A model generated the notes under the pieces. That model saw only the letters and a list, made by a program, of their open reading frames with translations, ran no database searches and had not been told where the DNA came from. Position numbers and translations under genes: made by a program. A stretch of DNA of 63,791 nucleotides, filler included, from Kipferlia bialata (taxonomy: Eukaryota), in assembly GCA_003568945.1 (NCBI GenBank). It is 7 parts of 7 records of this genome, joined end to end, with 100 filler letters (N's around TTAATTAATTAA, not from the genome) between each part and the next. Parts side by side here need not be neighbours in the genome. Positions count along the whole stretch, not along the records: positions 1 to 11,676 come from BDIP01001202.1; 6 more parts are not named here. The stretch is one strand, 5' to 3'. Each line of letters starts with the position of its first letter. The stretch's first letter is position 1. Shown here piece by piece: positions 63 through 63,729 of this stretch.

Positions 63-2663
63 GCTCAACACCAATGTGACTGTGTCCTCCCTAGTGCTGG
101 CAGACGGGTCCATCCAGATACTGCAGGAGCATTTGAGGTATATATATATAGATATAGTATATATATGTATATATGTATATATATATTATCACATATGTAT
201 GTATATAATGATAGTGTAAATATGGTAAGGTACTGGCAGATGGGTCCATCCAGATACTGCAGGATCACCTGAGGTACTTGAATGTGGATATATATATATA
301 TATACATATATATTATTATTATGTATATTTGTATAAAATGACAGTGTGTATATGGTATGGTACTGGCAGATGGGTCCATCCAGATACTGAAGGAGCATCT
401 GAGGTATTCATATGTATAGTACAGTATTATATATATTAATATAGGATATAATTATATTTTGGATATATATATACCCTCACTCACCCAGGTCCACCAAGAC
501 CGATGTCCTCATTCTGAGCAGGGCATTGTATATATGTATATATATATATATATATATATACAGTAATATATAATGACTTAGACATTAATACATAAATATA
601 CATATGACTATATTTGTATGTATGTGTTCCCACCCCAGGTCCACCAAGACCGATGTCCTTATTCTCAGTAGGGCACTGGAGTACCACACATCCACACCAA
701 CGCCATCGTACGTGACTTGCTGAACAGTATCCATGTACTTCTGTGTGATACATACTTTCGACAACATCATACCCAACGCCATCGTACGTGACTATAGGGA
801 CAACTTAGGAATATGAATAGTATACTTCAGTGATAATACTCTATATACTCCAAATCTGAGACCGAGTCCTCAGTATCTATACAATATCTATATATCTATA
901 TATTCTATATATACTATATAATACAACACTATCTGACACATAGCCCCAATGAGGCCGAGTCCTCCAACCGGTGTGTCAGTGCATGTGCCCAGGCAGCAGA
1001 GGCCGCAGGGGCAGTGTTTGTGTGGGCTGATATAGCCGGTAAGTGTCTATGCATACACTATGTATATATATATATATGTATATATATAAGTATGTGTGTA
1101 TGAGTGTGTATCTCTCCAATGGTGTATGGGCTGACATCGCCGGTGGGTGTATACTATATATATTTGTATATATTCATATATATACTTACATATGTTTAAC
1201 ACATACATACCTAACACCAGGTATGTTTGGGGCCATGTTCCTCAATGCTAGCTCATGGCATATAAATGTATATATATTATGAATCTATATACACTTATAC
1301 ATAGTAATATTATACTATATGTTTATATATATATATACTAATATATGTACCTGATTCCAGGTATGTTTGGGGCCATGTTCCTCAATGCTATATATNNNNN
1401 NNNNNNNNNNNNNNNNNNNNNNNNNNNNNNNNNNNNNNNNNNNNNNNNNNNNNNNNNNNNNNNNNNNNNNNNNNNNNNNNNNNNNNNNNNNNNNNATGTA
1501 TATATATACATATACTATACCCACCCCCAGGTCCAGGAAGTGCAGTGGTCTTGGCAGGCCTCTCAGTGAGGCACTCACTAAGGTATGCTTTACTAGTTAC
1601 ATTATAATACATTATACAATATAATATATTATAAATATTACACGTAATGAGTGTCAGACCTCTCAGTGAGGCACTCACAAAGGTAGTTATAGGCTCTTTA
1701 ATGAGTGTAATTCACATAATATGTGGTATTTACAGAGATAATTGAAACATTGTGATGAGTGTTACCATTATTGATTCATCATCACTGACTATAATTGATT
1801 CATAATCATCAATCAATTGATTTATCATCACTGATTGTCAGGGCAGGGACGGCCTCTGGACCAAGCTGGCTGGGGTCACATTCCCCCCTGTCGCATCTGT
1901 GGTGGGAGGTAAGGGTATATATATGCAATTATATACCCATATATATATATGTATATATATAATTGTATACATGTCCTTGTAGGAAGTGTAGACTCAATTT
2001 ACTAATACATTTCGTATATCCATGCGGTAACCCCCTCTTGCATCTGTGGTGGGAGGTATATGCACTATATAGTGTAATAAACACACATATAGTATATATA
2101 TATAGATGTGTATCTTGAGGTATTATATCTGTGGTGGTATGTATACTATGTGTTCCACATAAGCAAGTGGTGAATCATTATATATATATGTATATATACA
2201 TTACACTGACGCTGACACTGCAGGTCTAGTGTCAGTAACTATAATATTAGCTAATTTATATATATACATACACTGAGACTCCCTATATATACATTTTCAT
2301 ACACTGACACTGACACTCCAGGTCTAGGCAGCAGAGAGGTCACAACCATCGTCACAGGGGTCGGACAGGTATTCATGTGTATGTATATATAGTAGTAATG
2401 AACAGTGAGATATATATATTATACAATACCATGTGCGTATATATAAATAAGTCACAACCATCGTCACAGGGGTCGGACAGGTATGCATATGAGTGGTAAT
2501 ATATTTGTGCGGCTATATTAGCATATAACCAATCTCCCTAAGATTGATACTATTGTACATTTGAATATATACATAAATGTGTATAGTCTTACCCCAGATT
2601 GCTGGCAACTTTATGTTCTCAGACATGACACAGAATGCAGTGTACATTGAGAAGCACGAGTGA
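63..2663 (+). CDS. SAE1: SUMO-activating enzyme subunit 1 (SAE1/Aos1)-like E1/ThiF-family protein, multi-exon, 5'-partial, internal N gap
   Basis: Stitched exons read LNTNVTVSSLVLADGSIQILQEHLR/STKTDVLILSRALEYHTSTPTPS/...GAVFVWADIAG/MFGAMFLNA.../GRDGLWTKLAGVTFPPVASVVG/GLGSREVTTIVTGVGQ/IAGNFMFSDMTQNAVYIEKHE*. The C-terminus parallels SAE1 (APVCAVVGGILAQE...NNFFFFDG). Stop TGA at 2661-2663. Confidence 0.75.
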
Positions 2664-3140
2664 CAAGTGTGACATATCTGACATACACAATCGAGTGACA
2701 TATGGTCATGTATGTATGATTCAATAGATTCTCTGAACTGGACCGAATCAATCCCTGTGCTTCGAATATACAAAGGACAGTAATAGGAAGAGAGCGTCAA
2801 TGAGCCTGTCAATACGTCTTGGGGCCCAAGTCTAGCGTATTCTAATAGATATGTATAGATAGATTCTGTATCCCATATATCACTGCAGTGCCTCAGAGAC
2901 TCTATGGCCTCATCTCCTCTCTAGTGCACTGTTAAGTGGCACTTCATAACACTTTATACCAACATGTCGCCGTCTACACCCTTTGTCATGACAAGAAACC
3001 GGATTTTCCGAGAACCCTTCAATTGCCAAACACCCTCACACCCGAATCATTCTCCATACACAACAGACCCGTCCTCTTCACTATTCTGAGAGCTATTCAG
3101 ACATAAAGGAGCGTCGACCCAACAGTCTGTTGGTGTCGAT

Positions 3141-4419
3141 ATGGATGTGTCCTCCCCGAGAACTGTGTCTCTTTTGTCACAAAAGAGTCTTTTGTGCTAT
3201 GAGGGAGACTCCGACCCTGAGTGTGACATGGAGCAGGTATACTGCTATACTACTATGAATGTATATATATATATGTATTCATATATACTACGGTAGACTC
3301 TAAGTGTGACTTGGTAAGGGTATACTACTATATTGTATATATATCCAATGAATATTATCCATAGAGTATAACTATCTACAAGTGTAGATATACTATGGTA
3401 GTGTCTGAGTCTCACTTGTGTAGTATTGAAATAGTATAGACAATACAGTATTGTGTGTATATAGTATATATACTATGCATGGTATATATGGTATATACAT
3501 TGTTACTAACACTGTTAGTAACAATTTGTTAGAAATTGTATATATATAACTGTATATAGTGTATATAGTGTATATATAGTATATACATCGTTAGTACTCA
3601 GTTCCAGGCCCTGGGCGATGAGGAGGTCTGGGTGCTATTCGTGGCTTGGTTGTGTAAGGGGTGAGTCTCTCTTACCAAACTTGGCTGGTCATATGTGTCT
3701 CTTTCTCTCTTCTCTTCGGTCCCATACTTCTCTCACCTTAGGATGATGGCCACGACAGAGAACCCGATTACTGATGAGGTTCTGTATGACAAGTATGACT
3801 CTGTGTTGCGTCAGTACTTGTTGGGCTGGATCAGGCGAGGGAACAGAGTGTATGGTGAGATTGAGAGCCGGGGGGTAAGGTATGATATACTATATGTATA
3901 TATATTAGGTATGATATATACTATATGCATATATACACTTGGCATGATATGGTCACTGACGCATTATGTTTGGGTGCATATGTATTCGAACATTTCTCGA
4001 CGAGAAGTTCTCGTGTATGTCTCAACTCAGGTCATTTCGCGAGAAGTATGAGAAGCAGATTCTTGCCAAGGGATACATCACCAAGGTAGGGATATATATA
4101 TATATAGGTATATGTATAGACACAGAGAGAGAGAGAGATACATCACCAAGGTAGGGTCACTTTCATAACCATGTGACTATCATACCCATGTAATTATCAT
4201 ACCAATGTGATTATGTGTTCATGTTTCCGTTATCCTCATACCCAGGAAGAGTTAGCGGATTACAATTTCTTGGTCTCCCTGTTTGGGCATCACCTCTCGT
4301 TCGACACACCCTGGAAGCAGGACTTAGCTCACTATCGTCAGTTTGTGCCCCTCAGGCCTCTTCTCAGGGAGACCCTGGATGATATGATTGCATGCGGGTT
4401 GGATGACTGGGGGAGGTGA
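3141..4419 (+). CDS. Hypothetical protein, about 5 exons
   Basis: GT-AG-bounded exons: MDVSSPRTVSLLSQKSLLCYEGDSDPECDMEQ/FQALGDEEVWVLFVAWLCKG/MMATTENPITDEVLYDKYDSVLRQYLLGW.../SFREKYEKQILAKGYITK/EELADYNFLVSLFG...DDWGR*. No family recognised. Confidence 0.55.
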
Positions 4420-5232
4420 AATAGATATTACAAGACCATATGTATATGAATATATGTTTGTAATAAGACAGAATGTATACATATATATACATACATTGTA
4501 TATCATGTTACATGATAATCATGAATGCTGTATCCATAATTGATGATTGGATGAGTGGGGCAGGTGAAATTGACGGTATAGATGGTGATGTGTGAGTGTT
4601 GCCCTTACAAATATTTATCAGACGTATAATTGTGGTGTCACCATATCCCTCACCTACTAGCAAGGTTGGATGGGGGCACAGTATGCAGTGTTCCAAGACC
4701 ATATGTAGAGTTAAAAGAGAAGCTTGACATAACTCGGAGGGCGTCTGGGGTTAGATATAGAGGGGGGGGGCGAGACAGAGACTTGTAGATAGGAAGGGGG
4801 GTACTTGTGTCTTCAATTCCCTCTAAGTGGATGTCAAGAGGGAAGGGAGAGAGGGGGTGGAGGAGAGAGAGAGACATAGGGCTACCTGCTTCCAGACACC
4901 GTGTGGATAGAGAGAGTGTGAAGGAGAGGGCTGGGGGAAGAGTGCATATACACAAAGAGAAAGGACAGAAACTGCAAAACAATTCGGATTGTCAGATCGA
5001 ACCACACGAGTCATTGACCATGTAGACCCTCTAGTCTCTCTTTGCGACACCCTTAGACAGATTAGACAGATGCGCCTCCGTATCTGCCTGGGCCTAGCGC
5101 TCGTCTGGCTCTGTGTTGAGAGTGCGTGTACTACGTCGGTGGACGCACCATCATTCACCTGTCCCACCAGACTACCAAGGTATCAAGGCACAGCTATCTT
5201 ATATAGTGTATCCCTCGGGGGGGGGGGGAGGA

Positions 5233-5276
<44 letters not shown>

Positions 5277-6240
5277 GAGAGAGAGAGACGTGGGGAGCAA
5301 AGGAGTAAAGAAGGTTATGTATACATCATGTGTGCACTCTTGGTCTATAATGCCCCACCCTAACTGGGTGAGATCTGAGTGTTCCAACTTGGTCGGTACC
5401 ATCCATATCGTATCATATATATCCCCATCATATTGACACACCACATCGGATACATCTTCTCTCTCACTACCCGGCTATATACTGCATCGTTATAGTCCTA
5501 ACCCATACGCCATGACCATTAATCGAGAATACCCTCTACATGGGTATTGACAGAGGAATCATGCCCTCCACCCCATATGGGAGTTTCTTACCACTTCATA
5601 CTGATACTGATACCTGCTAATGAACAGCAGGTTGGGAAGGTACAGCGTATACCACTCTCCTAACATGCAGCAAGTCGGGAAGAGTCACTCTTCAAGAGTT
5701 GAGGCATGTGCTGAGCACAATGCACATCCTGCTACACCCTTTCGTGTTTTTGAATATGACTCATTGTCACAATATGATATTGTGAGGCCATTTGCTGTGA
5801 TAGTATTTCTATGATACCATTTGGCATCACCAAATTCTCTCTAGAAGTTGAATCACGACAGTGGAAGGACTAGAGATTCACAAGTTGTATAGGTCTTTCC
5901 TTGAAACGAATCGAGCACGGTTAGAGAAAACAGTGTAGTGTTTGCAAACACTAGTATAAACCCAATATGCATATAGTACGAAACCCAGCGTTCTCTGTGA
6001 CTTGGTACAAGTGTGATACACCGTGTATGTGGAGACAGCAGACCCCTCAGTCTCCAAGAGACTCTTAAGTATTGTTATGTTGAATTCAGTATATAATTGA
6101 ATTCACAATTAATAATCTAACAGTAGAGAGTACAGCGTCTCTGAATTTTGCAATAATAATACAGGCCAAAGACCTTTCTGGTGGCTTATGATATCCTTTG
6201 TTATACTACACTCTGGGATGACAACCCACTCTGATACCCT

Positions 6241-9200
6241 TCACAGATACGCTCCAGATATTGAATAGAGAGGCTCTCCAAGGGTCTTTCGAGAGTTCTT
6301 CCTAGTCAGACAGCACTCTTGGGTGACCTCACTGCATCTGGGCAGAACAGAGTGCAGCGCAGTCCCTAGCATAAGATAGCATAGTAATATTACGTATATA
6401 CATATACTATACAGTATAATAGATAAAGTAGTATATATATAGTAATATATATAAGATACATTGGGGTGTACACAAATGTATAGTGAAAGAGAGAGAAAGA
6501 GAAGTACTTGCACTACTGTAGCAACAAAGCGCACCCCCACTAGAGTGAAATCAGCTGGAGTATATACCGAGTAGAACGGCATAATATATTGGGATTTTTA
6601 TAGTAGAGAGAAGTACCTGAAAAATAGTGGCGACTAGACATACACCGACTACGGTGAAGTCGGCGGCGGCAATTGTAAAGGATACCCATCTGGATATGGT
6701 GTTGGTGCCATACTCTCTCTGGGTGTAAGGTACTACATACATATATATGTGTATATGTGTATAAGTATATACATATATATACATATATATATATCTGTAT
6801 GTGTGTATAGGCCAGGACATAGGGTGTATTTATGTATAGGAATATAGCATATCAAACGATGAAACGATGAAACTGCGGCTCCGGATAAGTGCTTCTACTT
6901 TGCTGCTTGATATAGTATGCAACGTGCAACCCACGTCACTGCAGTGGCGGCAGATGGGAACGAAAGTATACAGAGAAATTAGTATATACTTGTGACATAT
7001 AGTATGTATGTGTCCACATAGATACCTTGATGTAGTATGCAACGTCGAACGACGTCACTGCAGTGGCAGCGGAGGGGAAGGTGATGGCCCACCATGACAG
7101 CTGGAACTCAGTCCTATCATAAGGTGGATAGAGAGAGAGAAGTAGAAATGATATTGTCTTGAGCGGTAAAGAGAGAGCGGGGGAATTTGAGTGATGAGCC
7201 ACCAGACAGGGGGGAGAGAGAAGAATGATAGAGACAAGGGAGGGGAGACCTTGTGTCACAGTTAGATTCTATTGGGGCGTAGTGAGAGAGAGAGAGAGAG
7301 AGAGAGTACCTCATCCATGGAATAGCTCTTATGACTAGGAACACCATGGCCAGACACCAGAAGTACAGGCAGGAGTATGCAAACAACCTGGTGGTGAGGT
7401 CTGGTCACAATATACGTTCTCTGCGTCGTATACCAATATAGACAGATACTGGTACATAGTATTACAGATGCGAGGCACCAGAAGTACAGGCAGGAGTATG
7501 CAAATAGCCTGATGGTTAGGGGTCAAGTATCACGAACCTCTGTTTTCTTCTTTATTCAGAATCGATGTCTGCCTCATGTGAAAGAATATTAGGCTATTAC
7601 GTCCCACCGAAGAGGGCAGAGTAGAAGATGCATTTATACATATCTACCTTTGTAAACTAGACCACTGGTATATATACAAATATACGTATATATATAGTTC
7701 AATGTACCTCGATACCACGTCCCATTCCCCCCCTGTGAGGGCAGAGTATGAGATGAAGGCAAGGCCTCCTGGGGCAGCCTGGCGATATGAATATTCAGTG
7801 AATACACTTTGTGAGACAGAGTTCCTACCACATGTCACTTACCAGTATAAATATAGATGGTGTCAGTGCCGGTGCGAGGCTGTGTCCACTGACCATGGAC
7901 ATGAGGCACATGGAGAAGACACCAATATAGAGGATAACACCTATGGTTTAAGAGAGAGAGAGAGAGAGAGAGGTTGACTATGGAGAAGACAATTGAGCAC
8001 AACGCCTATATGATAAGCCAGGTATAGATACGAAGAGTGATTTCACATATGGGGACGGTAACGCCTTCCCAAACGTCTCTGTCACTACACGATACAGTGT
8101 ACCTGCCCCCCAGAACAGCCACCCCAGCTCTGTCCTGTCACATGTGCCCATGCATATGGCCATGAAGAGATTGGCAACGGGGGGGATCTGGGGTAAGATA
8201 CAGTGAAGTATACATATATATATATAGATGAAATAGTGATATTCTAACAACGTATTTGTATTGCGTATATAACATATGGCCATGAAGAGATTGGCCACAG
8301 GGGGGATCTGGTATCAATCCATACGACACTATTGCAGAACTGCCCTATAGACTGTATAGATGATTCTATACGTGTGTTCTACAAGATTTGTTGGGTTGAT
8401 ACTGTCTTTGGGCACTGTTCTCTATATATATTACGAGATGTGACTATAAGTAGATCTAATATTCGCTATTGTGCATGGGATGTCTTACCAGGTTTGTGGG
8501 ATTGATGCTCTCTTTGAGCACTGGCCTCTCTGACAACCACTCCATGAATATGGTGAATTACTACTGTATAGTGTGAAAAGATGATTCTTTATCTATTACT
8601 TACCAAGTTCGTGGGATTGATAGAATCCTTGGGCACTGGTCTCTCTGACAACCACTCTATGAATATGGTGAAGGAGACACCGATATGTGAGCCGGAAGCA
8701 ATATAGCACAGAGCTAATCCTACTGGTAAGATAGCTTGAGAGAGAGAGAGATAGCATTGGTGTAGGAGAGAGCTATATGGGACCCGGAAGCAGTATAGCA
8801 CAAAGTTAACCTTGCAAGTAAGATAGAGAGATACAATAAAGAACACAATGGTATAGATAGATGTGACCATGCACAACATCATGCGGTGGGAGTCGTTTTA
8901 GTGAGAACGACAGAGGGAAAGAGAGAGATCGACAACCAGGGGGATCAGTAAGGAGGAAAGAGAATATCTTCTTCCAGCGGTTGTGTTTCAACCTATGCAC
9001 CCACCCACCTGTGTAGTACCAGGTGTTATGCACCCCTGTGCTGGTATAGACACCCTTCCATAGGTCAGCTACCCCTAGGTATGAGAGAGAGAGAGGCAGA
9101 GGCTAGATAGAGATATAGCACATATGTAGAATTCATATACACTCAGTAAGGCGGAAGCAGAAAGGAGAGGTCCTGAGACGGAGGCTATCGGAGCTAAGTG

Positions 9201-10332
9201 AGTCTTAGAGAGGGAGAGGGGGAGAGAGAATTTGAAACAGATGGGTAAATCCACACCTAGACAAATGATAGCCAGACATATCCCAATGGCAGGGAAGAAG
9301 TTGCGCTTTACTGGGTGCTGATGGTAAGAGCGTAGTGACGAAGAAATTACGTGTGTGTCGAGAGAGAGAGAGTTTAGAGAGGGTAAGACCACAGTGGCAT
9401 TCCCAACTATAATACGTGTTTGTGTCGAGAGAGAGAGAGTAACTGGATTGCGGAAGGAGAGTGAAGTGAGAATTGCGAAAGAAATGGAGAGGAAGGGGGA
9501 GGGAATTACATACCTTGAACTCCATCAATGCCAATATATATTGAGGCTATAGAGAGAGAGAACAGAGAACATACCTTGAACTCATCCGAATACAGCACAC
9601 TGGAGGGGTCCTAAGGGTGTAGAGAGAGAGAGACAGAGAATATAGAGACAGAGAGAGAGAGAGAGACCATACCTTGAACTCTTCCACCACACTGGAGGGG
9701 TACTTGATAACCCTGAGGGTAAGAGAATAGACATATATAGGGAAAGAGAACTATATGAGAAGCTAAACAGGGAGCGATAGAATGAGATAACAGTGATATA
9801 GATATTGGTGCTGATACTATATGTAGGAAACACACCTTGCTATAAACATGACTAGGAACCCAGTGAAGACTGCAGTGCCCAGTGCTAGATAGAGTGATGC
9901 CACAATTGAGGGCAAAGCATAGTCTCTCTGGAATAAGGGGCCAGGGAGAGAGAGAGAGAGAGAGGGGGGACGAAAGAAGATGTTGCATGTACCCGGATAT
10001 ATATGCAATAGTAGTATATACCTGTATGCGTCTGAGCACCAGTGTAGGGGAGAGGAGGCCCATGAAACCTGACAGTAAGGGTGTAGCTTAAGAGAGAGAG
10101 AGAGACAGGAGGCCCATGAAACCTAGGGGTGAGGGTGTAGGCAGAAAAGAGAGAGAGAGAGAGAGAGAGAGACTGAACCGGGAAGACCTGAGAATCAGGC
10201 ACATAGGAGAGAGGGGAGAATTGTCGAGAGAGATATAGTTACAGGAGAGAGAGAGACAGAGACTGACCTGGGAAGAATGCGATGCTGACATGCTCCAGCC
10301 AAGTGGTGGAGGCATGAGGCACTGGGGAGTAA

Positions 10333-10384
<52 letters not shown>

Positions 10385-10967
10385 GAGAGCATCAGGCACT
10401 GGAGAAAGGGGAGGGGGTAGCGGCAAGGGGGTAAACACTATGCTGAGAGAGAGTCTCTGTGTAATATGGGAGGAAAGGGAAGAGAGTTCACATACCTATA
10501 TCCACTGAAGTGTCCGGTGTCTTGCCTAGGCGTCTCTCATTACCTGGGGGGTGAGAGAGAGAAGAAGGAGAGATTACGGAGAGGGGGGGATATTGAAAGA
10601 AACTCAGAGCAACTAATTAATAGAGGGGAGAGAGAGAGAGACGAATGGGGAGGGGGGGGGGGGTATGTCAGGAAGACAAGTATATACATACAGACCCAAA
10701 GTATTGTGCAAGAGAGAATGTGTATCTGCAGAGAGAGAGAGAGAGAGAGAGAGTACCTGTGTGCTCAATCTGGGTGCAGTCCCTATCCAGCACCACCTCT
10801 ACCTCCATCTCTTCCAGAGTGCCACACAGCTCTGGAGTAACAGCTACAGACACATCCCCCTCCCTCAGGACTCTATCATCCATATGGATACTCCACACTA
10901 CGTATGGACACTCACGAAGATAGGTGTCAAGCAAATTGACTAATTCCGAATCGAGAGTAAAGTACAT
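6241..10967 (-). CDS. SLAC1/TehA (TDT family) anion channel/transporter, many exons
   Basis: Stitched minus-strand exons contain VIKYPSSVVEEFK/HPVKRNFFPAIG (SLAC1 HPVRVNFF), WLSERPVPKDSINPTNL/IPPVANLFMAICMG..ELGWLFWGAG (TehA LPTVANNF), AAPGGLAFISYSALTGGEWDVVSR, and FQLSWWAITFPSAA (conserved WxxxFP gate motif). Confidence 0.85.
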
Positions 10968-11676: not shown

Positions 11677-11776
11677 NNNNNNNNNNNNNNNNNNNNNNNN
11701 NNNNNNNNNNNNNNNNNNNNTTAATTAATTAANNNNNNNNNNNNNNNNNNNNNNNNNNNNNNNNNNNNNNNNNNNN
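11677..11776. other. Artificial contig linker
   Basis: 44 N + TTAATTAATTAA (stops in all six frames) + 44 N. Confidence 0.97.
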
Positions 11777-35217: not shown

Positions 35218-35317
35218 NNNNNNNNNNNNNNNNNNNNNNNNNNNNNNNNNNNNNNNNNNNNTTAATTAATTAANNNNNNNNNNNNNNNNNNNNNNNNNNN
35301 NNNNNNNNNNNNNNNNN
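35218..35317. other. Artificial contig linker
   Basis: 44 N + TTAATTAATTAA + 44 N. Confidence 0.97.
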
Positions 35318-35990: not shown

Positions 35991-38900
35991 TCACTGTCCC
36001 TGTGGGTGGGGGGTGGGTGGGGTGCGTGTCCCCTGCTTGTGTCTGAGGGAGTGGGCAATCTCCCGAATGATCTCCCTTCTCTCAGCCACCATGTCATCCT
36101 GGACATCAATCAATAATTAATTAGGGGGGCAGGGCACACACTGGGTATACATATGTATACTGTACATATGTACATGGTGGGTATGTCAGCCACCCCAATG
36201 ATATCCGCAGACACCCAATTCCCCGTCCCACTTGCTTCTGCCCCTTCAGCTTATCAGTATCAGTATATATATATGATCTTTTATGATGATACCGATACTG
36301 ATATATGACACTGATCCAGACCCCACCAGTATATAGATATAGATATATATAGATATATATATATACAGATATATATAGATATAGATATACATAGATATAG
36401 ATAGATATAGATAGATATAGATATATCCCACCTGCTTCTGCCGCCTCAGCTTGTCAGTATCAGTATATATATATATAGATAGATAGATATGGACAGATAG
36501 ATATATCCCACCTGCTTCTGCCTCCTCAGCTTGTCCTCCAGCACCCTCTGGTCCATGTCGAAGGTCAGGGCCAGGCCGCCCTCGCTCGTCTCCTTGTATC
36601 TGCTGTGCATGTCGAGGCCTGATAGCTTCATACTACAGGGTCAGACAGCTACATGCTATAGTAGTATATAGTATATCATATATATATATATATATATACA
36701 GTAAGACAGCTACATGCTATGGTAGTATATAGTATATCAGCGATATATAATATCAGCTATATATAATATCAGCTATATTGTATATCAGCTTCATGCTGCA
36801 TATATATATACATGTATACAGTCAGACAGCTTCATGGCATGTATGATATATACAGTATAGATATGTATGATATAGACAGTATAGATATATACAGTATAGA
36901 TATACTCATGCTGCACAGTCAGAGGCCCTCTGACTCAGAGGGAGATGGTAAATGTAGTGTGTGTAGTATATAGTATATATACATGTACATACAAGTGCAG
37001 CATAGCTTCATGCTGCACAGTCATCGGCAGTAGGGGGTGGTATACATATATACATGCTTCATACAAACATAGCTTACACACAAAACGCGTAGCGCACACA
37101 AGTCACTAAATATATACATACAATCATATGCTATGTACTGCATATATCCACATATATACACACACACCCATACCTGTGCACACACTCATCGTATGACACG
37201 AGGTGGTTCCCTTCTCCCATCAAAGCCAGGTCGGCACAGTCGAGGGCCCTGGGGTGAGATACAAACATATACACTATATATGGTATATAGTATGTATATA
37301 TACAGTATGTATAGTATGTGATCAGGTCGGCACAATCCAGGGTACGGGGGGAGGGGGAGTATGGGGGATAAACAAACACCTATAATGAGTCTGTGTTACA
37401 CATATACACATCTGGGACCATTATGTGAGAAAAGACCCATACATAGAGGGATACTATCAGTTATACATATGAATGATGAGGAGAATCATGCATCAAACGC
37501 CGTGCTCTCGCTGATAGGATACTGACACTGGTGTGTCGCGGGGCCTCACCTGAGTGCGGCGTGTCCATTCCTCTCTATGCAGGGCACAATGACCTTGCCA
37601 TGGACTGGGTCACACTGGGATAAGGCATATATTTAGGGATATATCTAAGGATATATATACATACATAGACATATACATACATAGACATGGGTATATACCA
37701 ATGACCTTGCCATGGACTGGGTCACACTGGGATGAGATGTATACACGGTATAGATAGAGACACATACACATACACACACATATATATATACATAGACATT
37801 GGTATGTGCCAATGACCTTGCCATGGACTGGGTCACACTGGGGTAAGGATATGTATAGGGATATACATAAGGATATATAAACACACATAGACATACACAT
37901 ACATAGACATAGGTATATATCAATGACCTGGCCATGGACTGGGTCACACTGGGGTAAGGATATGTATAGGGATATATATAAGGATATATAAACACACATA
38001 GACATACACATACATAGACATAGGTATACATCAATGACCTTGCCATAAACACTGGGGTCGGGGGGGTAACCGTATGTGTATGCATGTATATATGTCAACA
38101 CTATACATAAATATCCATATAAATATCTGTATCTGCATCCACATCCATGGCAACGTATATATCGTATCTAACGTACAATCAGGCCTAGCTGGTGCTCCAG
38201 GGCACTCTCTGCAGCCGTCTCTATCTGCTGGGGTCCCCCGCCCATGAGGTATGCCGCTGCCGCTGCGGCCATGGATGTGGCAACACCAACCTGGGGGGAG
38301 GGGGGGGGGGTCCTATAGCAAGGTCACTGCCACTGCCTCCTTGAGACATATACACTGATATACACACACTCATATACATACACTCATACAGTGCAATGAC
38401 ACTATCCGACTATGTCATATATACATATATTAGTACACATGTCTATACACACCCACCTCCCCCTGGCAGCCAACCTCTGCCCCAGAGATGGACGAGTTAG
38501 CCTTTGCCACGTTGCCCACCAGCCCTGCCACGGCTATGGCATTGATGATGTCACAGTCCGACAGACCCAGCTCATCCTCTGGAAGGTAAGGGGGGGAGGG
38601 TATAGAGGGTATATATAGAGAGAGAGGCACAGAGAGCAGTGGGGGTGAGAGGGAGGAGGTGTATATATGGGTACGCACACATACACAGGCATATATATCC
38701 ACACATGCCACTCACTTAGGTACACCAGCACCGCAGGCAGCACACCACACGATCCACAGGTGGGGGCAGTCACCACAACTGGGGTGAGGGTGAGGGGTGA
38801 GGGGTGAGGAGCTAGGAGACACACTATGCACTATATATATATATATTCATATATATATATATATACACTATGAGGGGACTGAGGGTCAATGCCAAATAAT

Positions 38901-44253: not shown

Positions 44254-46820
44254 TCAGCCCCGTGCCCTGTGACCCATGGGTCTAGGTGCCAGGGGGGCCA
44301 GGGAGGAGGGCTTCTTGGAGGCACAGGTGTCCTGTACCTTGCGCACAATCTCACATAAGGGGACAGGCTGGGGTAAGTAAGAGTATATAGTGAGGGAGAG
44401 ATAGAGTGTCACTGAGTGGGAAACTAGGGGTCCTAGGATGACTGCCAGCGAAGGGCAATACACTGGACAATATTTAAATAGACACTCACGCACGTTGTCC
44501 GAACCGGTCTGCCCCATCTTCTCGTCGTAGAGGAACACAGGCATCTCCATGTCGATGTTGGCCTGAGACCCATACACTGCACGCACTATGTTGGAGAGAT
44601 AGTCGTGGCGCATGAGCTCAGCACTCTTTGGACCCTTGTAGAAGAGCACGCACTGCACGTCTATGCCCCTAATGGCCCTGGTCATCTCAGTCACATGGAC
44701 GTTGGGACGCTTGCCCTGCATGTAGGAGAAGACAACCTGGGGGGTTCCAGGCTTGGGCTTGGCACGGCGCAGAGCTGCCACGGCAGGAGGCAGGGATGCA
44801 GGGTTCTTGGCGATGACTAGTGTGGCACCAGCCCCAGGCACCACACCCTCTGTCCACAGCTTGTCCAGACCGGCTAGACACTCCGGAGAGGCATGGCCTC
44901 CCAGCAGGTGCAGCTTGCCAGTAAGCACACCACTGCCAGCGGCTGATACGGGGGGAGGACGAGCCGCAGTAGGCTTGGTGGCCACCCTCTTGCGGGGTTG
45001 GGCCCTCTCAATAGTAGTAGGCACTGTCACTGGACGGGATGGGGATGGGGCTGGTTGTACTGACTTCCAACAGGTGGTGCACATACGTGTTACGTTCTCC
45101 ACTGAATCTGACTCAGCCCCGACGTACACCAGCACAGGGGGGGCGGGTGCGTTAGGGCGGGTGGCGAGGGAGTGGGTGAAGAGGTCAGAGAGATGGGACC
45201 GGAGGTTGCTCTGGACACCGCAACTCTCTGTGGCGGCCATGTCACACACCACAATGGCCTGGATAGTGGTGTGGTTGGGGAGAACCAGGGGGGAATAGTG
45301 CTGTAGACTAGAGTACAGCTCCACCACGTCTGGCCTGGGGTCCGTCTCAGGTGCCCCCCTGATGAGAATGGTCTTGCCCGTAGGCACTGCCATGGACCTG
45401 AAGACCAGAGGGCCTCCCTTGACGATGGCCTCGGCCTCAGTCACCATGGCGGCACTAGCAGGGGCGCCAAAGACGTGACGGCACTGGGAGCCATCTCCAT
45501 TGGGGATACTCAGTGGCCCTTGTGTGGCCTGTGCCTCACCCTCCCGCTCCACCTTCTCCTTCTCGTTCTGGACCTGGGTGAGTGGTCTGATGCAGTGGTT
45601 TAACGGATACGCTACCGGGTAAATGTACGAACCTCCTCCAGGTCCTGGCCGAATGTGGCGAAGAGGGGAGACCTCTGGCCAGACTGCTGGTGGTACCTGG
45701 AGTGAGGGCAGTGAGAGAGTTAGAGAGTGGAAGGGGAAGAGAAAGGTTGTAAGGACATACACGTACTCGTTATCCAGGCTCTTCATCTGCTGCAGCACTG
45801 AAAGGGGAATGGTGTGCAGCATCCGGGTGTGGTAGGCCTGGAGTCAGTGGGGATAGACTCACTCCCAGCACCAGAGCTATCTCTCTCTTAGACATAACTC
45901 CTAATACCAGGGGATAGTGCTCTCTGTAAGTGTATGGGTGTACAGTGTCATACCTTCCTCTGCTCCTCCTTGACAGCCTGTACCATGTCAAGAAGCTGAG
46001 CACAGTTGGGGCGCTTGTTGGGGTTGCGCTGGTAAAAGAGGAGGAGCATTAGACGAGTCATGCGGCTATGGACATACTGCTAGATTGAAGTACCTCGAGC
46101 ATACTGTTGACAATCGCAGCAACACCAGGGATACCGGTCTCCTCGTCTGTGAGACGCCTGGGCTGAGAGAGGGAGCATCAGAGGGAGGGCATTGCCTTAA
46201 AGGGAGACTAGTCAGCAAATACAAATTAGCATCCCATAGACACTGATCATACTTCAGTATCGACACCACTACCTAGCAGGGACAGGGAGAGAGAGCCTGG
46301 CCACCAGGGCCTTCACACTCTGTGGGTTCCCTAGCACACACTCAGGGGTGATCATCTGGGGTGGGGGTGGGGTCAGGGGATAGCCATGAAGACAGCAGGA
46401 GTGAGTCTGAAGAAGAAAAGGAAGCGTTGAGTTTTGGCGATTAGGTGGTCAGATACTGCTGCAGAATGAGAAAGCGATCTCCCTCACCGTGCTGAGTGTA
46501 ATACCGAGGGCCCATATGTCAATGGACAGCCCATACCCCTGGCCGTTGATGGACTTTTGCTTCTGATGGTGGGAAAGTGAGAGGAAGAGAAACCACGGGG
46601 GGGGGGAGGGGAAGAGAGACAGAGAGAGAAATACTATGCAAATAGAGTGAAAACCAATGGCATGGGCCTCTCCAAGCATTGTGGTTCTGTAAAGAGATGA
46701 TACTTGGTACTGTACATACTGTAAATAGCAACGATATGACAGATCCGCTTACCTCTGGGGCACTATAGATGGGAGACACACAGTCGTAGGTGATGGCAAG
46801 TGTCTGAAGGTCAGCCGTAG
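44254..46820 (-). CDS. Ser/Thr protein kinase (C-lobe) with a long unknown C-terminal region, 5'-partial
   Basis: CVSPIYSAPE; GYGLSIDIWALGIT; QRNPNKRPNCAQLLDMV (subdomains VIII, IX, XI), followed by a large exon within ORF 44254-45822. Confidence 0.7.
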
Positions 46821-46981: not shown

Positions 46982-47081
46982 NNNNNNNNNNNNNNNNNNN
47001 NNNNNNNNNNNNNNNNNNNNNNNNNTTAATTAATTAANNNNNNNNNNNNNNNNNNNNNNNNNNNNNNNNNNNNNNNNNNNN
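46982..47081. other. Artificial contig linker
   Basis: 44 N + TTAATTAATTAA + 44 N. Confidence 0.97.
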
Positions 47082-47361: not shown

Positions 47362-49206
47362 GACTGGATGTATGGCAACCAGGACAATGGAGAGACAGGA
47401 ATAGTGCACGGCCGCACTGGAAGGGTATGTACTGTACCAGTGGTACCATTGGCATTGTTTCATATTTGTCTTTGTATGTTGCTATATATACACTATTCTA
47501 TATATATAGATCATATCACACCCATATACTCATTATAAAAACTACATGCATCAATAGTATGTAGCAGTGTCTGCGTCACTGTGTATCATCTCACCCATAG
47601 ACCGGGTGTGTCGCTGTCACGTGGACTGGCAACCCCTGGTCTAACCAATACAGGGCAGGCAGAGGCGGCATGTACGTTACCCAGTACATCCTTGTAGCAT
47701 AGATATATGTACATATAGCTTGTTTATATACATGGGGGATAGCGTGTAGATATATAGGCAGAGGCGACAAATACGTACATAACATGTAACCCAGAGTACT
47801 TCTATTTCTGGTCATACGTATATATAGATTGATACAGGGCAGGCAGAGACGGCATCTACGTACACTTCAATACTATTACCCAACAGTTCTCCAACCTCAT
47901 CCGTGAAGTGCTGTATGCCATATACATACTGCAATGCATGACTAATACTCATGCTCACTATCACTAATAGGTAGGTATGACCTTGAGTACAAGGAAGCAG
48001 AGCCAATCACTGAGACAGCGGGTCAGGTAAGAGCTTGGTTTTGTGTACAATACTACCTGCTAGATGTAAACATTGGAAATAGGACCCCACCACATCTCTC
48101 GTGCTACACACACACTCATGAATATCCATAAACTGCATGTCTAGACCTCTTGAACATTGTTTAGACATACACCACTGTACATGAATCATTTGAGCATACT
48201 CCTATGCTGACCCCTCTATCTATAGGTGCCGTGTACTAACATCCAAGAAGATACTCTGTTTGTAACACAGCAATACTTGTATGATTCATCTATATACACT
48301 ACTGTGTAAACAGATGAGATTATATATGAGTAGTGTTGCACTACTAGTGTATGTATATAGAAGGGCTGTGTGTTTGCTAATGTGCAGACCCTCACCCCTG
48401 ACACCGTGTGTGCCTCGTCTGTCCGTGTGGGTGCCAGGGTGATGAGGGGTAGGGACTGGAGGCTCACAACGTAAGTAGCACATGTGTAGAAATGTGTATC
48501 TTTGTATCATTGTCTATAATAGTATATTTACAGTATATATTCTAGTACTCATATATATAAGAAGGACCGGTAGAAGCGTGTTGGTTACATGCTATTACAA
48601 GTGTAATTTACGCACCACTATTACAAGTATGTATTGCATTATACATTTTCCTTCACACCTCACCGCATGGGACAGTCTAAGTGACAGTATAGTGTGATAG
48701 TCACAGTATATACTACCGATATATATTGTACACTATGTTTAGTCTTCACACCCCACATGTGGTTCGGCCCACTTGCGGCATATTCCTATATACATATAGA
48801 TATCGTACCCCTCCTCCCTAACCACAGATGGGACTGCCCAGACGAGGGTTATGTAGGGACCATACTCGATGGACACAGTATGGTATGTGACACACTTCCT
48901 ATAGGACATTTGGATATACTACGTATAGGGAGTGAATATTTAGTGATTATGTTCATGTGATGTGACACCGGATGGTACGTGACCCACCTATTGGAGAGGT
49001 TCTGTTTATAGTCCATTCATATATATATAAGAGCCTCTATATGTGTCGTAGAGTTATATATACACTCTCGATGGGCACAGGCTGTCACCACGTACGTTGT
49101 ACGTTGTACGTTGTACGTTGTACGTTGTACGTTGTACGTTGTAGAGTACATGCTGGCTGGGTCTCTGTCAAGTGTGTATAATACTCTGGCTATAGTATGA
49201 ATATAT

Positions 49207-49237
<31 letters not shown>

Positions 49238-49303
49238 GTAGTACATACTAACGCTAGGCTGGGTGGGTCACTGTCAAGTGTGTATAATACTCTGGCTATA
49301 GTA

Positions 49304-49342
<39 letters not shown>

Positions 49343-51000
49343 GTACATACTAACTCTAGGCTGGGTGGGTCACTGTCAAGTGTGTATAATACTCTGGCTN
49401 NNNNNNNNNNNNNNNNNNNNNNNNNNACTGTCAAGTGTGTATAATACTCTGGCTATAGTATACGTATATGTATATATATATATCTTTATACATATAGTAG
49501 TACATACTAACCCTAGGCTGGGTGGGTCACTGTCAAGTGGGACGACAGGGAGGGTCTATACAGACACAGGGCTGGATACCAGGGGAAGTACGCATGCCTA
49601 TTTACTTACATGTTCATATATGGTTTCTTCTACGTATGACAAGAGCATCTCTCTCTTTCCCTCACTTCCCTGAGTTCCCTCACTCCCAGGTATGGTCTTC
49701 TCTCTTCTGACTAGGAATACTATAGATTTATAGTATACTGTATGTACGTGGATAGAGAGATGCCCCCACCCCAGGCATGACCTTGTCTACTTTGGTGGCA
49801 TTGACCATGGGTCCCTGGGCAGCAACTACTACCCAACACCCCCCCTACAGGAGTGGGCAGACGACAACATCAGTGACTCACACACTGACACTGAGACTGA
49901 TTTTAGTCCCTCAGTGGAGGAGTATAGCGCTGGTGAGAGGTCTGAGGCGTCATCTGCTTACATGCCAGAGGCAGGAGAGGCTGTATCTGTCCTAGATAGA
50001 CTGAGGATAGGAGCTCGGGTCATGATGGATCCGGACCGTCTGCGGGTATGCAGATATATACAAATATTCGTCTCCATATATATTCATATATAGAAGTGAT
50101 GCTGCAGACACTGGGCGTCAAATGTTGAGGTATAGGGCTATGGTATTGAGATGTAATATATATATATCCTACCAAACGTATATATATTGTAAATGATTAA
50201 AGGTATATGTACATATGAGTAGAGGGGCAGGGTGGACAGACACAGTATCAGGTACAAACCTCTGTACTGTTAATATCCATTTTTGGAATCATGTATATAC
50301 ATATTAGTGAATGAAGTATGAGTAATAGGGGCCAGAATGGTCGGCCTTTCTTACTGTGTAGATGTGTTGAACACCTTGACCTTTTACTTACACTATATCC
50401 TCTTGAGAACCAGGTTTATCTCTCTTTCCTCACTATGTCTCATCTCTAGGGAGTACGTGATCACGTTGGCATAGGCATTCTGGTGGGAAGGTGTGGTGGG
50501 TTAGTGCGGGTCAGGTAGGAGCTATATGTGGTTTCAGTCCAACTCTATATTACTTCACATTGAAGTCATATCACTTGTTAAGTGAGATACATGTTGCAAC
50601 ACGGTGAACTGGTTGTGACTACAATGCATATTCCCCATATGACTATTTCTCATTGCATAAATATATATCGTTCTGTAGATGCCCTCTCACAGGGGCGATG
50701 CCCCTGCTGTTATACATAACACACTTTGTATACACTCATGGCACACATAGGAGATATATACAGTGTACATAATATATGCATACACTCCTCCGATACACTT
50801 ATATGTATACATATATATATATATATATGCTTCTATCACTTCACTCTTACTCCTAGGTGGCCAAACGGAGAGGAACCCAAGCTCCATTTTGCCAATCCTG
50901 TGTGTGACTACAGGGACCTGGGTTTCGGTGAATGTGAGCTCGTATACGCCGACTTGGAGAGCGGCTGGCTGGTATGTCAAGTGTACATGTATACATGCAC

Positions 51001-52850: not shown

Positions 52851-54233
52851 TTTGATTGGATATAATGCCTCGGGACGTACACCAAAGAGGTCAAGCAGCC
52901 AGCACTGACAGACTCCCCATCCGTCACTGAGCTATTCACAACCCGTTTGTCAATACATGCTCGTATAGGGGCATCTGTTGATTACCTGAATAGAAGTTGC
53001 ATTAGAATACCTTGTTGGAAACACAGACCCATAACAGTGCATTCCGATGTGTTATTGATGCTCTCAGATAATGTATGCCTTCAAGGGTAAAGAAGCGACG
53101 AGGGAGTAATTGTTGATATCCAGCAATAAGGGCCCTATTAATGCATACTATACGGTATCGCAGAAACACTCGACGGCTGTCCAACAAAAGGTACACCCCT
53201 TCTGTACAGACACTGAGCAATATTGGCACTCATAATTGAGAACGCTACATAGTCGAAACTCCGTATAGCGCTTCTGATATATCCAGGCCTAGAACATTCA
53301 CTCTCTCATCATATCGCATGCTCCACCAAACCTCTTACTACCAGGAATATGCTCTCTCCACAGTGATTGGGATGGTTGCCAGTGTAGTGCCGCAGTTGAA
53401 GTTAAGGACTCAACATACGAACCCGTGCTACTTTATGCTAAACAGTTGCGTACACGTCCAGTTCAGTAGCCACTGTGCGCATGCAACACCCGTCTTCCTC
53501 ATATTCAAGTACTGTAACGTCTCTCTCCCTCTCCCTCTCTCTCTCGCCCCCAGGTCTACCCCCTGACCCTTCTCTCCCTCTCCCTCTCTATCTCACCTTT
53601 AGGTCTACTTCAACCCTTCTCTCTCTCTCTCCCTCTCCCCCATCTATCTCACCCCAGGTCTGCTTCAACCCTGCCTTCTGCTCTGTCATGGTGGGTGAGT
53701 CACTCAGCATACACTATATACACTCATAATATACACATAAATACACTACTCGTCTTTGATTCCAGGGGAATCACTCAGCATCGCAGTGGTGCTGCTCCCA
53801 TACTCTGCCCTGTCCTCCAAGTGGCACGTGAGGCATGGGTCTAGGCAGTGGACCTCGGATGTGTCGGTATAGTAAATACATATATAGAGAGAGTTTATGA
53901 TGCAAGTACTATCCTCTTCTCTCTTTCTGACTGTTATAGTGAGTGTATACACGCAATATGGGGAATGGAGGCATGTGTTGAGAGCTTCTACTCGAGTCAA
54001 TGGTCATCAGATGTGCGTGTGGGAAGAAAACCATTTCTTCTTCGAATCAATACTCCAACTATTAAGGAAGTGATCAGTTAGTAAATGTTGCACGTTACCA
54101 TGCCCTTTATGGCATCGGAACTACATTGATGTTGTCCATTATCTGGTCACTCACAGACGGGAACTCTCTGCATAATCTCTGAGAAGATCTCCATTATCCA
54201 AACGATAAGAGTATATATTGCAATTCTGAACAC

Positions 54234-57503: not shown

Positions 57504-58376
57504 TCAGAACACCCTGTCGATACTAGGTGTGTACCTATACACCCAGAAGACCACACCAGCAGCAAGAGCAATCCCACAAGCTGTGTTGGTGAGTACTCTC
57601 TGCCAGCGTTGTCTGCGGGGGCGGGGGTACCCCATGGGAGGGTGTCTGAAGAGAGAGACCACTGCAGTGATGTTGTCGAAAGAATTGTGCTCGTACGCAT
57701 ACTTGGACAAGCACTGGGCGGCGTTGTGGGCACTAGACTCTACATCAGTCCCTTTGGTGGCAGCCAGAGAGCCTTGGACCTGCTCTACGGCCAGTGAAGG
57801 TGAGATGGAGTCAATCCAGAGGCCATCACTGGCTATTATGAGACCCTGGTGCTCCTGGGGTCAAAGAAGTATTGCACATATGTCATAATATACCATACAA
57901 AGCTAAATAGTGAACTGGATACTGGTATTTTAGGCTTACTTGGGTCTCATAGACTTTTAGGGAGGAATAGAGGGTAGAAGTCCAATGTCCAATATTCAAA
58001 ATGTATATGTGGCGTGTAGTATTAGCAGTTTGAATCTGGGGGGAGGAGTGAGGATGTGTGCTGTCATATATACACACACAAGTGCATACATATGGCGACA
58101 CCTCTGTGATTGCGTGCATCTGAATATGCCATTCTATATATATATATATACTATATATACTATACATATATACATATGTATATATATATGTGGTGGTACC
58201 TCTGTGATGGTGTGTATCTGTAGCTCAGGCACACTGCTGAAGATGGGCACTGCGTACTTGTTTCCAAAGCCGCGAGTGACGTTCAGAGTGGTAGCCTCCC
58301 AAAGGGACCCTCCAGTGTGGAAGTACCTCTCACTCACATGACCCCCCTGTGCTACAACTCTCCGCCTCTCACTAGC
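57504..58376 (-). CDS. PP2C/PPM-family phosphatase C-terminal part with a C-terminal transmembrane helix, 5'-partial
   Basis: SERRRVVAQGGHV..LNVTRGFGN..SSVPE/EHQGLIIASDGLW..NSFDNITAVV, then ACGIALAAGVVFWVY. Confidence 0.85.
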
Positions 58377-58738: not shown

Positions 58739-58838
58739 NNNNNNNNNNNNNNNNNNNNNNNNNNNNNNNNNNNNNNNNNNNNTTAATTAATTAANNNNNN
58801 NNNNNNNNNNNNNNNNNNNNNNNNNNNNNNNNNNNNNN
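58739..58838. other. Artificial contig linker
   Basis: 44 N + TTAATTAATTAA + 44 N. Confidence 0.97.
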
Positions 58839-62489: not shown

Positions 62490-62589
62490 NNNNNNNNNNN
62501 NNNNNNNNNNNNNNNNNNNNNNNNNNNNNNNNNTTAATTAATTAANNNNNNNNNNNNNNNNNNNNNNNNNNNNNNNNNNNNNNNNNNNN
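62490..62589. other. Artificial contig linker
   Basis: 44 N + TTAATTAATTAA + 44 N. Confidence 0.97.
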
Positions 62590-62719: not shown

Positions 62720-63729
62720 GACTTCGGTGAGATCACTGAGGAGAAGGGTATCTCCTTCTTCGCTGGCAAGATGGACGGAATCCTCGGACTCGCCTTCCCC
62801 CGCATCTCCCTCGACAACTCCCTCACCGTCATGCAGGTATTAGCTTAGTATACTCAATGCTCATGTTATTTGCCTCATATATTATAAACCTTTAGTTCTC
62901 TCTCTCTCTCCTCTGACCCCTAGAACGCCTGGAACCAGCAGGCCCTTGACGAGAACATCTTTGCCTTCCTCATGACCCTTGAGGGTGCGTGTTGTGTTGT
63001 ATATATATTTATGGTTGAGTAGTATATATAAGGTACCCTGTATCCCAGTCCCTCCTTCGAGGAGCTTTCAATGTGTTATATTTCTTACCATCTCTCCCTA
63101 CCTCGCTATTTACTTACCCCCAGGCGGCCACATTGACTTTGGCGGCCTCGACCCCACCTACATGGTGACCGAGCCCACCTACTTCCCCGTCACCCTTGCT
63201 GCTTACTGGTGCGTAGAGTAGTGCTCTATATATCACTGCCCTGAGTAGTAGTGTGCCAGTGCCTCTCTCTCTCTCTCTCCTTACCCTCTCTCACTCTCAG
63301 GGAGACCAGGTTTGACGGCATGACCGGACCCTGGGGCACTGTCGGATCCAACGGCCGCGTCATCCTCGACACCGGCACATCCATCATCGTGGGTGGGTGA
63401 ATATTGACTTGGTGTGACTTAGCATGACTGATTGTGACCCCCTCTGACCCCTCAGGACCCACCGACCTCATCCAGACTGTGATTGAGTCCTACCCCGTCG
63501 ACGCCCAGTGCCACTCCCTGGCCTGGCTCGAGCCCGTCACCTTCGGCATCTACGGCCAGGACTTCACCCTGTCCGCTGACCAGGTACACAGATACATACT
63601 GCATACTCACACTCACTGTAGACATATGCCTGTTTGGCAACACCCGTCTCACCCCCCAGCTTGTTGTGCAGGAGCAGATCACCCCCACCCAGACCCAGTG
63701 CATGGCACCCTTCGAGGGCATGGACCTCG
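62720..63729 (+). CDS. Pepsin-family (A1, cathepsin D/E-like) aspartic protease, internal part
   Basis: DFGEITEEKGISFFAGKMDGILGLAFPRIS; GGHIDFGGLDP; AYW; VILDTGTSIIV/GP (second catalytic DTG motif). Confidence 0.93.

Follow-up and report, generated by a model that had tools for sequence, protein, structure and literature searches.

In the first 2.7 kb of the window (the term is used here for the whole 63.8-kb stretch of Kipferlia bialata DNA that was analysed), the ends of exons recur as short copies within the adjoining introns of gene A, a model of eight exons, bordered by canonical AG/GT and open in frame once spliced, which we tentatively take to be SAE1-like (SAE1/Aos1) from motifs in its spliced form. 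The assignment to K. bialata agrees with a 100% match between a 360-aa exon of a gene other than gene A and proteins of this organism. These copies, here called echoes, raise the question of what they are, how common they are and how they came about. The analysis reported below indicates that they are genomic, intronic copies of exon ends with a splice signal of their own, and that they are real, frequent and no artefact.

Echoes in gene A and across the window

All the pairs that a preliminary description had listed in gene A were recovered when the sequence was re-examined (Table 1). The differences are synonymous in four of four cases between 489-528 and 639-678 and in three of three between 1020-1038 and 1124-1142 (donors gtaagt/gtgggt), the changes AGG/AGA and ACT/ACA are present between 1553-1582 and 1653-1682, and the exon part is identical in the pairs 697/773, 1221/1361 and 2339/2451. 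The donor echoes at 230 and 360 have a common upstream junction (184-285 and 314-415 are 83% alike), and the 40 nt following the donor echo at 2451-2480 are only 55% alike, which is the background level. The differences in gene A are not all silent; five non-synonymous ones had been omitted, namely E/D (copy at 230), Q/K (360), G/V (1652), V/L (2031) and A/T (857-871), and the tally is 14 synonymous to 5 non-synonymous. That nearly every junction is echoed was borne out: an echo is found in 6 of the 6 modelled introns and, by eye, at 10 of the 12 assessable junctions if the one at 2322 is counted, where the echo consists largely of intron sequence; no echo is visible for the acceptors at 1842 and 2598. 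The copy at 1361 enters a gap of 100 N (1396-1495), so that either the copy at 1221 or the one at 1361 may be the used exon. Read-level support for gene A consists of a share of 31-mers, DNA run X1 containing 98% of 890 sampled from 1500-10000; the contig-level check was made in gene C.

Table 1. Coordinates of used exons and echoes in genes A and C (positions along the window)
Feature	Position	Strand	Remarks
Gene A exon, used copy	63..137	+	AG..GT, open spliced frame
Donor echo 1 of 94-137	230..273	+	4 synonymous, 1 non-synonymous; GT follows
Donor echo 2 of 94-137	360..403	+	3 synonymous, 1 non-synonymous
Acceptor echo of 639-678	489..528	+	4 synonymous; own CTCAC branch motif and AG
Gene A exon, presumed used copy	639..707	+	spliced gene model
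Donor echo of 697-717	773..793	+	identical; 10 intron bases included
Older acceptor-side echo of 950-964	857..871	+	1 non-synonymous; absent from the first list
Gene A exon	944..1038	+	spliced gene model
Donor echo of 1019-1038	1123..1142	+	3 synonymous; followed by a donor of its own, gtgggt
Acceptor echo identical to 1361-1390	1221..1250	+	branch motif CTAAC vs CTGAT
Gene A exon start, truncated by assembly gap	1361..1390	+	sequence
Gene A exon	1531..1582	+	spliced gene model
Donor echo of 1552-1582	1652..1682	+	2 synonymous, 1 non-synonymous
Gene A exon	1842..1908	+	spliced gene model
Donor echo of 1884-1908	2031..2055	+	V/L codon
Acceptor echo of 2300-2327	2202..2229	+	mostly intron 3' end, 6 exon bases
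Gene A exon	2322..2368	+	spliced gene model
Donor echo of 2339-2368	2451..2480	+	30/30 identical
Gene A last exon	2598..2663	+	with stop; spliced gene model
Acceptor echo of 8187-8153, gene C	8273..8307	-	RNA contig differs by 2 letters
Donor echo 2 of 8642-8604, gene C	8383..8421	-	GT kept; spliced out
Donor echo 1 of 8672-8604, gene C	8489..8557	-	TCT/AGC serine switch; spliced out
Gene C exon used in RNA contig	8604..8719	-	0 differences
Decayed acceptor echo, gene C	8758..8809	-	4 synonymous, 5 non-synonymous; AG lost; spliced out

Across the window, 106 introns of 16 genes were modelled with a small gene finder followed by hand correction, and the models were checked against RNA at one locus, where an acceptor was shifted by 15 nt (8734 to 8719). 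When exon ends are aligned to the adjacent intron, echoes appear in 30 of the 106 introns (18 donor and 17 acceptor), at a chance level of 0.13% (the same score in 6 of 4,693 mismatched pairings of exon end and intron), and none of 70 wrong-side controls reaches the echo score. The earlier claim that the pattern recurs across unrelated genes therefore stands, with echoes in 8 of the 16 modelled genes, and the genes differ (6/6 introns in gene A, 7/14 in gene C, 1/22 in gene E; P 0.0004). Introns with echoes are longer than the others (median 240 vs 93 nt). The echoes themselves measure 15-69 nt (median 26, n=50), the distance between the used junction and the nearest of them is 54-184 nt (median 99, n=40), and all pairs are in direct, head-to-tail orientation, 46 of 50 extending to the splice site. 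The arrangement noted at the outset, with donor echoes downstream and acceptor echoes upstream of the used exon, is present but needs no special rule, since selection for an intact exon would leave just this geometry. Between echo and used junction lies a stub of median 68.5 nt, against 147 nt for the piece on the far side (n=22). Runs of (TA)4+ number 0.86 per 100 nt in echo introns versus 0.30, and 0.31 in long echo-free introns; this enrichment may be either a cause or a consequence of the echoes.

Four echoes in gene C served as a test locus. A separately made assembly of run X1 contains one contig of 2,019 nt that covers 8235-9080, all four echoes included, at 0 differences, X1 possibly being the source of the window DNA and hence the same sample, and no second X1 contig was found at 80% likeness over this interval (846 nt). 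The echoes, whose absence from PCR or long reads the preliminary description had named as the sign of error, are thus present in the DNA assembly at this locus. A contig of 1,372 nt from X2, taken as RNA on the strength of its splicing at CT..AC joints, the record having no RNA label, is exact on exon 8604-8718 and skips both donor echoes; it is 2 letters off the acceptor echo at 8273-8307, so the other copy (8187-8153) is the one used. The variants of the echoes, which had been proposed as something to look for in the transcript, are accordingly not in the dominant mRNA at this locus, where the RNA contig uses the outer sites and the extra splice sites of the four echoes are silent. Contigs drop rare variants, and 3 of the 4 echo sites here are weaker or broken.

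Several further features of the window were observed alongside. Units of 3-5 echo copies lie at 37587-38051 (-), 49152-49539 (+), 36233-36535 (-) and 53552-53687 (+), and the young copies in such amplified units have their intron flanks in common. A 541-nt intron at 36633-37173 (-), in a gene presumed to be L-serine dehydratase-like, holds by eye several short, decayed acceptor echoes below the score cut. The product of 44254-46562 (-) matches three K. bialata gene models at 100% identity, among them one labelled protein kinase, and the gene, with echoes in 0 of its 7 introns, is read as recently multiplied or as a repeat. The one GC donor, at 16554, belongs to a 23-exon gene that we assume to be BPI/LBP-like, with 1 echo in its 22 introns. 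Other gene models presumably encode a TDT/SLAC1 transporter-like protein (6600-10883, -), a glucosylceramide synthase-like protein (23705-27787, +), a PP2C phosphatase-like protein (57543-58371, -) and a cathepsin D-like protein (62720-63729, +). Six joins of 100 nt, in each of which a 12-nt stop linker is flanked by 44 N on either side, are found at 11677-11776, 23452-23551, 35218-35317, 46982-47081, 58739-58838 and 62490-62589; as the window consists of joined contigs, gene order across them is not secure.

Flanks, splice signals and silent changes

The exon parts of the pairs have a median identity of 0.93, against 0.60-0.65 for the next 40 intron bases and 0.53-0.55 for unrelated introns. 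Flank identity is below 0.8 in 37 of 46 pairs, and exact identity extends a median of 4 nt past the splice site, reaching at least 12 nt in 4 of 39 pairs. Echoes that have a junction in common show the same contrast between exon part and flanks when compared with each other (0.93 vs 0.70-0.75; 1.0 vs 0.68-0.78), which weakens the argument from the flanks, as intron-like DNA may change faster; faster change of TA-rich DNA is indeed part of the explanation of the contrast.

The splice signals of the echoes are largely intact, GT being kept in 20 of 23 (21 in the corrected register) and AG in 19 of 23. The kept sites score about as high as the used ones (5.45 vs 5.65; 8.69 vs 9.18), and about half of their non-core positions differ from those of the used sites; in the test for decay of splice scores, ungapped counts with background base composition were employed, by which P is overstated. 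The branch motif YTNAY is present at 18 of 21 echo acceptors and 74 of 87 ordinary acceptors, versus 47 of 346 internal AGs, and in 9 of 17 pairs the motif of the echo differs from that of the used site at the free N, in 6 in spacing. The splice signals of the echoes thus show a 'silent' divergence of their own. In the 74 of 87 non-echo acceptors that have it, YTNAY lies 5-10 nt before the AG. The echo acceptors at 489, 1221, 10122, 26187, 62108 and 62653 outscore the presumed used site and would nevertheless be skipped by the spliceosome.

For the codon changes, 50 of the 61 alignments were kept, 11 being dropped for a score <24 or a distance >13 nt from the splice site. They contain 108 unique substitutions, 61 synonymous and 47 not, distributed over codon positions 1/2/3 as 27/14/67, with a pN/pS of 0.23-0.33. 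With a neutral copy next to an exon under selection, 37-46% of the differences are expected to be synonymous, not 25%; part of the silent bias is thus to be expected in any case, as silent changes are the only ones open to the used exon. Tested against this null, the share of 61/108 has a P of 5e-5 to 0.017, or of 5e-6 to 0.004 if the exon also tolerates some replacements. Without gene A, 47 of 89 substitutions are synonymous (P 0.0002-0.095); without genes A and C, the share is 26/52 and not significant (P 0.01-0.29 by null); with one pair per exon side it is 52/93. The silent bias first reported for gene A is hence real but was overstated, since not all changes are silent and some of the bias follows from selection on the exon, and the excess leans on two genes, A and C. 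No clear direction of codon shift was seen among the synonymous changes (27 GC-to-AT vs 20 AT-to-GC), and a directional shift was rejected as their cause.

At the gene C exon end, the used copy and its two donor echoes form three versions, including TCT/AGC/AGT for one serine, that differ pairwise over 13 codons by 5:2, 8:1 and 6:3 synonymous to non-synonymous changes, the last being echo versus echo and the second belonging to donor echo 2 (8 synonymous and 1 non-synonymous codon differences). The presence of three versions at one junction points to a polymorphic population rather than to one hybridisation.

Origin of the echoes

On balance we lean towards the reading that an echo, together with its splice site and the intron attached to it, is a piece of a long-diverged allele joined by imprecise homologous repair. 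A break in the TA-rich intron of one allele would be repaired on a second allele, whose intron is too diverged to pair, so that the neighbouring exon would be the sole anchor for strand invasion. Synthesis would copy the whole intron of the second allele and overshoot slightly into the end of its next exon, and the new end would then be joined, with no annealing, to the untrimmed stub of the first allele, giving the order exon, stub, echo and intron. In a two-step variant, a local tandem duplication would come first and the echo would later offer the closest homology on which another allele could anchor a conversion, which would lead to the same product and suits the arrays. Under either route both copies would have evolved as working junctions in separate lineages, which would account for codon changes that are silent and for splice signals that are altered yet valid; neutral decay of the echo after transfer would bring non-synonymous changes and lost sites, and only events that leave the outer junction intact would survive. 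The mark of such an origin is present in the pN/pS of 0.23-0.33 and in splice signals that are valid but different, and the short stub, the long far piece and the enrichment of TA runs fit one-sided repair.

Ordinary short tandem duplication across splice sites in one haplotype, by slippage or microhomology repair at TA repeats, is the strongest competitor, and we regard it as unlikely though worth serious weight. The echo would then decay neutrally, the TA-rich intron would mutate faster and the used exon would add silent changes. Such duplication accounts for the geometry and the unit size, it fits the arrays of 3-5 copies with common junctions, the likeness of young units extends from the exon part into the intron part (flank identity at least 0.8 in 9 of 46 pairs), the faster divergence of flanks than of exon parts between echoes is what it expects, and it predicts 37-46% synonymous changes, where the genes other than A and C give 26 of 52. 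Against it stand simulations of 38 junctions, to which the detection filter of the real data was applied. In six neutral-duplication settings of 60 runs each, 38-39% of the changes were synonymous and the observed 56.5% was attained in 0 of 360 runs, so that the neutral decay expected of intronic copies is not matched, a result that is not significant outside genes A and C; those settings with a flank identity of about 0.62 kept too few acceptors (29-36%) and donors (53-62%), where 79% and 90% are observed. Tandem duplication also leaves unexplained the 8:1 ratio in 13 codons of gene C and the branch motifs that differ at the free N with T and A intact. Four allele-origin settings, on the other hand, gave 60-64% synonymous changes, reaching the observed share in 72-97% of runs, with flank identities of 0.59-0.78, three of them near the observed 0.63. 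The observed retention of acceptors (0.79) was attained in only 0-27% of the allele-origin runs, and this excess over the prediction leaves room for a present use of echoes.

Such a use, in minority transcripts, in another life stage or through collapse of the DNA between echo and exon, by which selection would maintain the echoes, is a second alternative and a rather improbable one. Besides acceptor retention, it draws on echo splice sites that are as strong as the used ones, some of them stronger, and on the echo at about 9575-9612 (-), which differs in length by 6 nt without loss of the frame and possesses an AG and a GT of its own. At the gene C locus, however, the RNA contig takes the outer sites with 0 differences, and among the DNA joints listed none skips an echo; most echoes, moreover, would seem to have no splice path back into frame, many carry non-synonymous changes (47/108), indels or lost sites, and no full tandem exon pair occurs among the 61 alignments. 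As a separate observation, a 36-nt echo at 9575-9610 (-), with an AG and a GT belonging to it, could be included as a cassette micro-exon without a frame shift.

That the echoes are the remains of whole-exon tandem duplicates, long spliced in a mutually exclusive way and then half deleted, or result from conversion by a paralogous gene elsewhere, would yield the silent bias and the valid, different splice sites with no need of diverged alleles, and is nevertheless very unlikely, because intact exon pairs would be expected about as commonly as half pairs and none is found in the 106 introns, and because neither DNA nor RNA yielded a paralogous contig for the gene C locus at 80% likeness. An assembly artefact, with two haplotypes or strains placed in tandem, is scarcely credible: alike exons beside unalignable introns are how two haplotypes compare, and the scaffold has gaps and linkers, with three pairs abutting gaps, but the X1 contig reproduces the gene C locus with 0 differences and no second contig (the same sample being possible), X1 contains 98% of the sampled words of 1500-10000, the junctions themselves are duplicated and diverged (echoes at 230 and 360, 83%), and donor and acceptor echoes do not abut as they would in a concatenated bubble.

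Three further candidates were rejected. Two-step (recursive) splicing does not hold as a rule: the exon ends in AG at 15 of 18 echoed donors, compared with 61 of the 88 remaining ones, and an initial GT is missing from many echoed exons. Conversion confined to exon and echo would erase differences and could not enrich silent ones, and selection on echoes through rare collapse would be too weak unless diversity is extreme.

The repair of breaks on a diverged allele would require alleles at least about 20% diverged at silent sites, and such alleles are hypothetical. No donor allele was found, a single X1 contig being recovered at 80% likeness over the 846 nt; two metagenome scans for relatives gave 126 and 437 pattern hits with 0 confirmed, which is no evidence on diversity; and a protein search returned one cluster, all K. 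bialata, and no second strain. As for the machinery, metamonads are without Ku70/80 end joining and DNA-PKcs, and all examined Fornicata are without Rad51A but have two Dmc1 (PMC8516963), and Dmc1-type residues favour repair on templates at least 20% diverged (PMC6719624). Somewhat less probable than not is the broader idea that roughly one Kipferlia intron in four is a scar left by exchange between alleles whose introns cannot pair and whose exons are the sole anchors. If so, whole introns would have been swapped between haplotypes, with their overshoots fossilised as echoes, in what would be the main engine of intron growth. Fragments of other alleles would then number in the tens of thousands per genome, and they would document cryptic sex and extreme diversity in a relative of Giardia that is free-living and repairs breaks without Ku or Rad51.

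Implications and comparison with known systems

The K. bialata genome paper gives 124,912 introns (PMC5874029); if the 28% of the window held genome-wide, some 35,000 introns would have an echo, an extrapolation from one window whose genes differ strongly. Were echoes that common, allelic divergence and past recombination could be read from the single genome of a free-living fornicate, and such a record would bear on whether and how free-living fornicates have sex and would connect the pattern with reports that Ku and Rad51A have been lost and Dmc1 is used. Echoes make up much of the tail of long introns and thereby bear on intron growth. With a spliceosome reduced to 87 of 174 proteins (PMC6679479), thousands of valid competing sites beside used ones would amount to a natural experiment on splice-site choice. 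In practice echoes mislead gene prediction, the gene finder having called exons at 489, 1221, 9610 and 26187.

No published description of the echo pattern was found in the main texts of the openly available full-text literature, and in the main text of the genome paper 'duplicat' and 'heterozyg' have 0 occurrences (PMC5874029). Mutually exclusive tandem exon duplicates resemble the echoes in lying side by side, in differing silently and in having splice sites that are valid. Echoes differ from them in comprising 15-69 nt of one exon end, with only partial near-exceptions (9612-9575, 18030, 18090), and in being absent from the mRNA tested, the RNA contig holding the outer copy alone (at one locus, contigs dropping rare variants).

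The closest repair route is one-sided invasion, in which a homologous template is copied from one end of the break, the other end is attached by a non-homologous joint, and template sequence is duplicated as a result; it is reportedly due to Belmaaza and Chartrand (1994), as homologous synthesis finished by end joining. Duplication of template sequence would be common to both cases. One-sided invasion, however, is known from induced breaks in cells, whereas here a natural, genome-wide footprint with a diverged allele as template is proposed, in a lineage that is without Ku and Rad51A.

Among duplications that touch splice sites, a segmental tandem duplication may create an intron (PMC3265369), and it resembles the echoes in that a local copy at a splice motif alters intron structure and leaves the mRNA unchanged. 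In Kipferlia, by contrast, no new intron was seen: at one locus the RNA connects the outer sites that were there before, and an intron already present becomes longer through the echo. Intron 7 of human F7 contains a 37-bp minisatellite with silent 5' pseudo-sites (PMC1557585), and there too the unit spans the exon-intron border and extra donors follow the real one, the most upstream being used. F7, however, is one locus with identical pseudo-sites, whereas in Kipferlia 30 of 106 introns are concerned, on the donor and the acceptor side and mostly with two copies. The likeness over the whole unit that a case of the F7 type leads one to expect gives way to flanks below 0.8 in 37 of 46 pairs, and the Kipferlia echoes, unlike the F7 repeats as described there, combine these diverged flanks with splice-site sequences of their own and an excess of silent changes.
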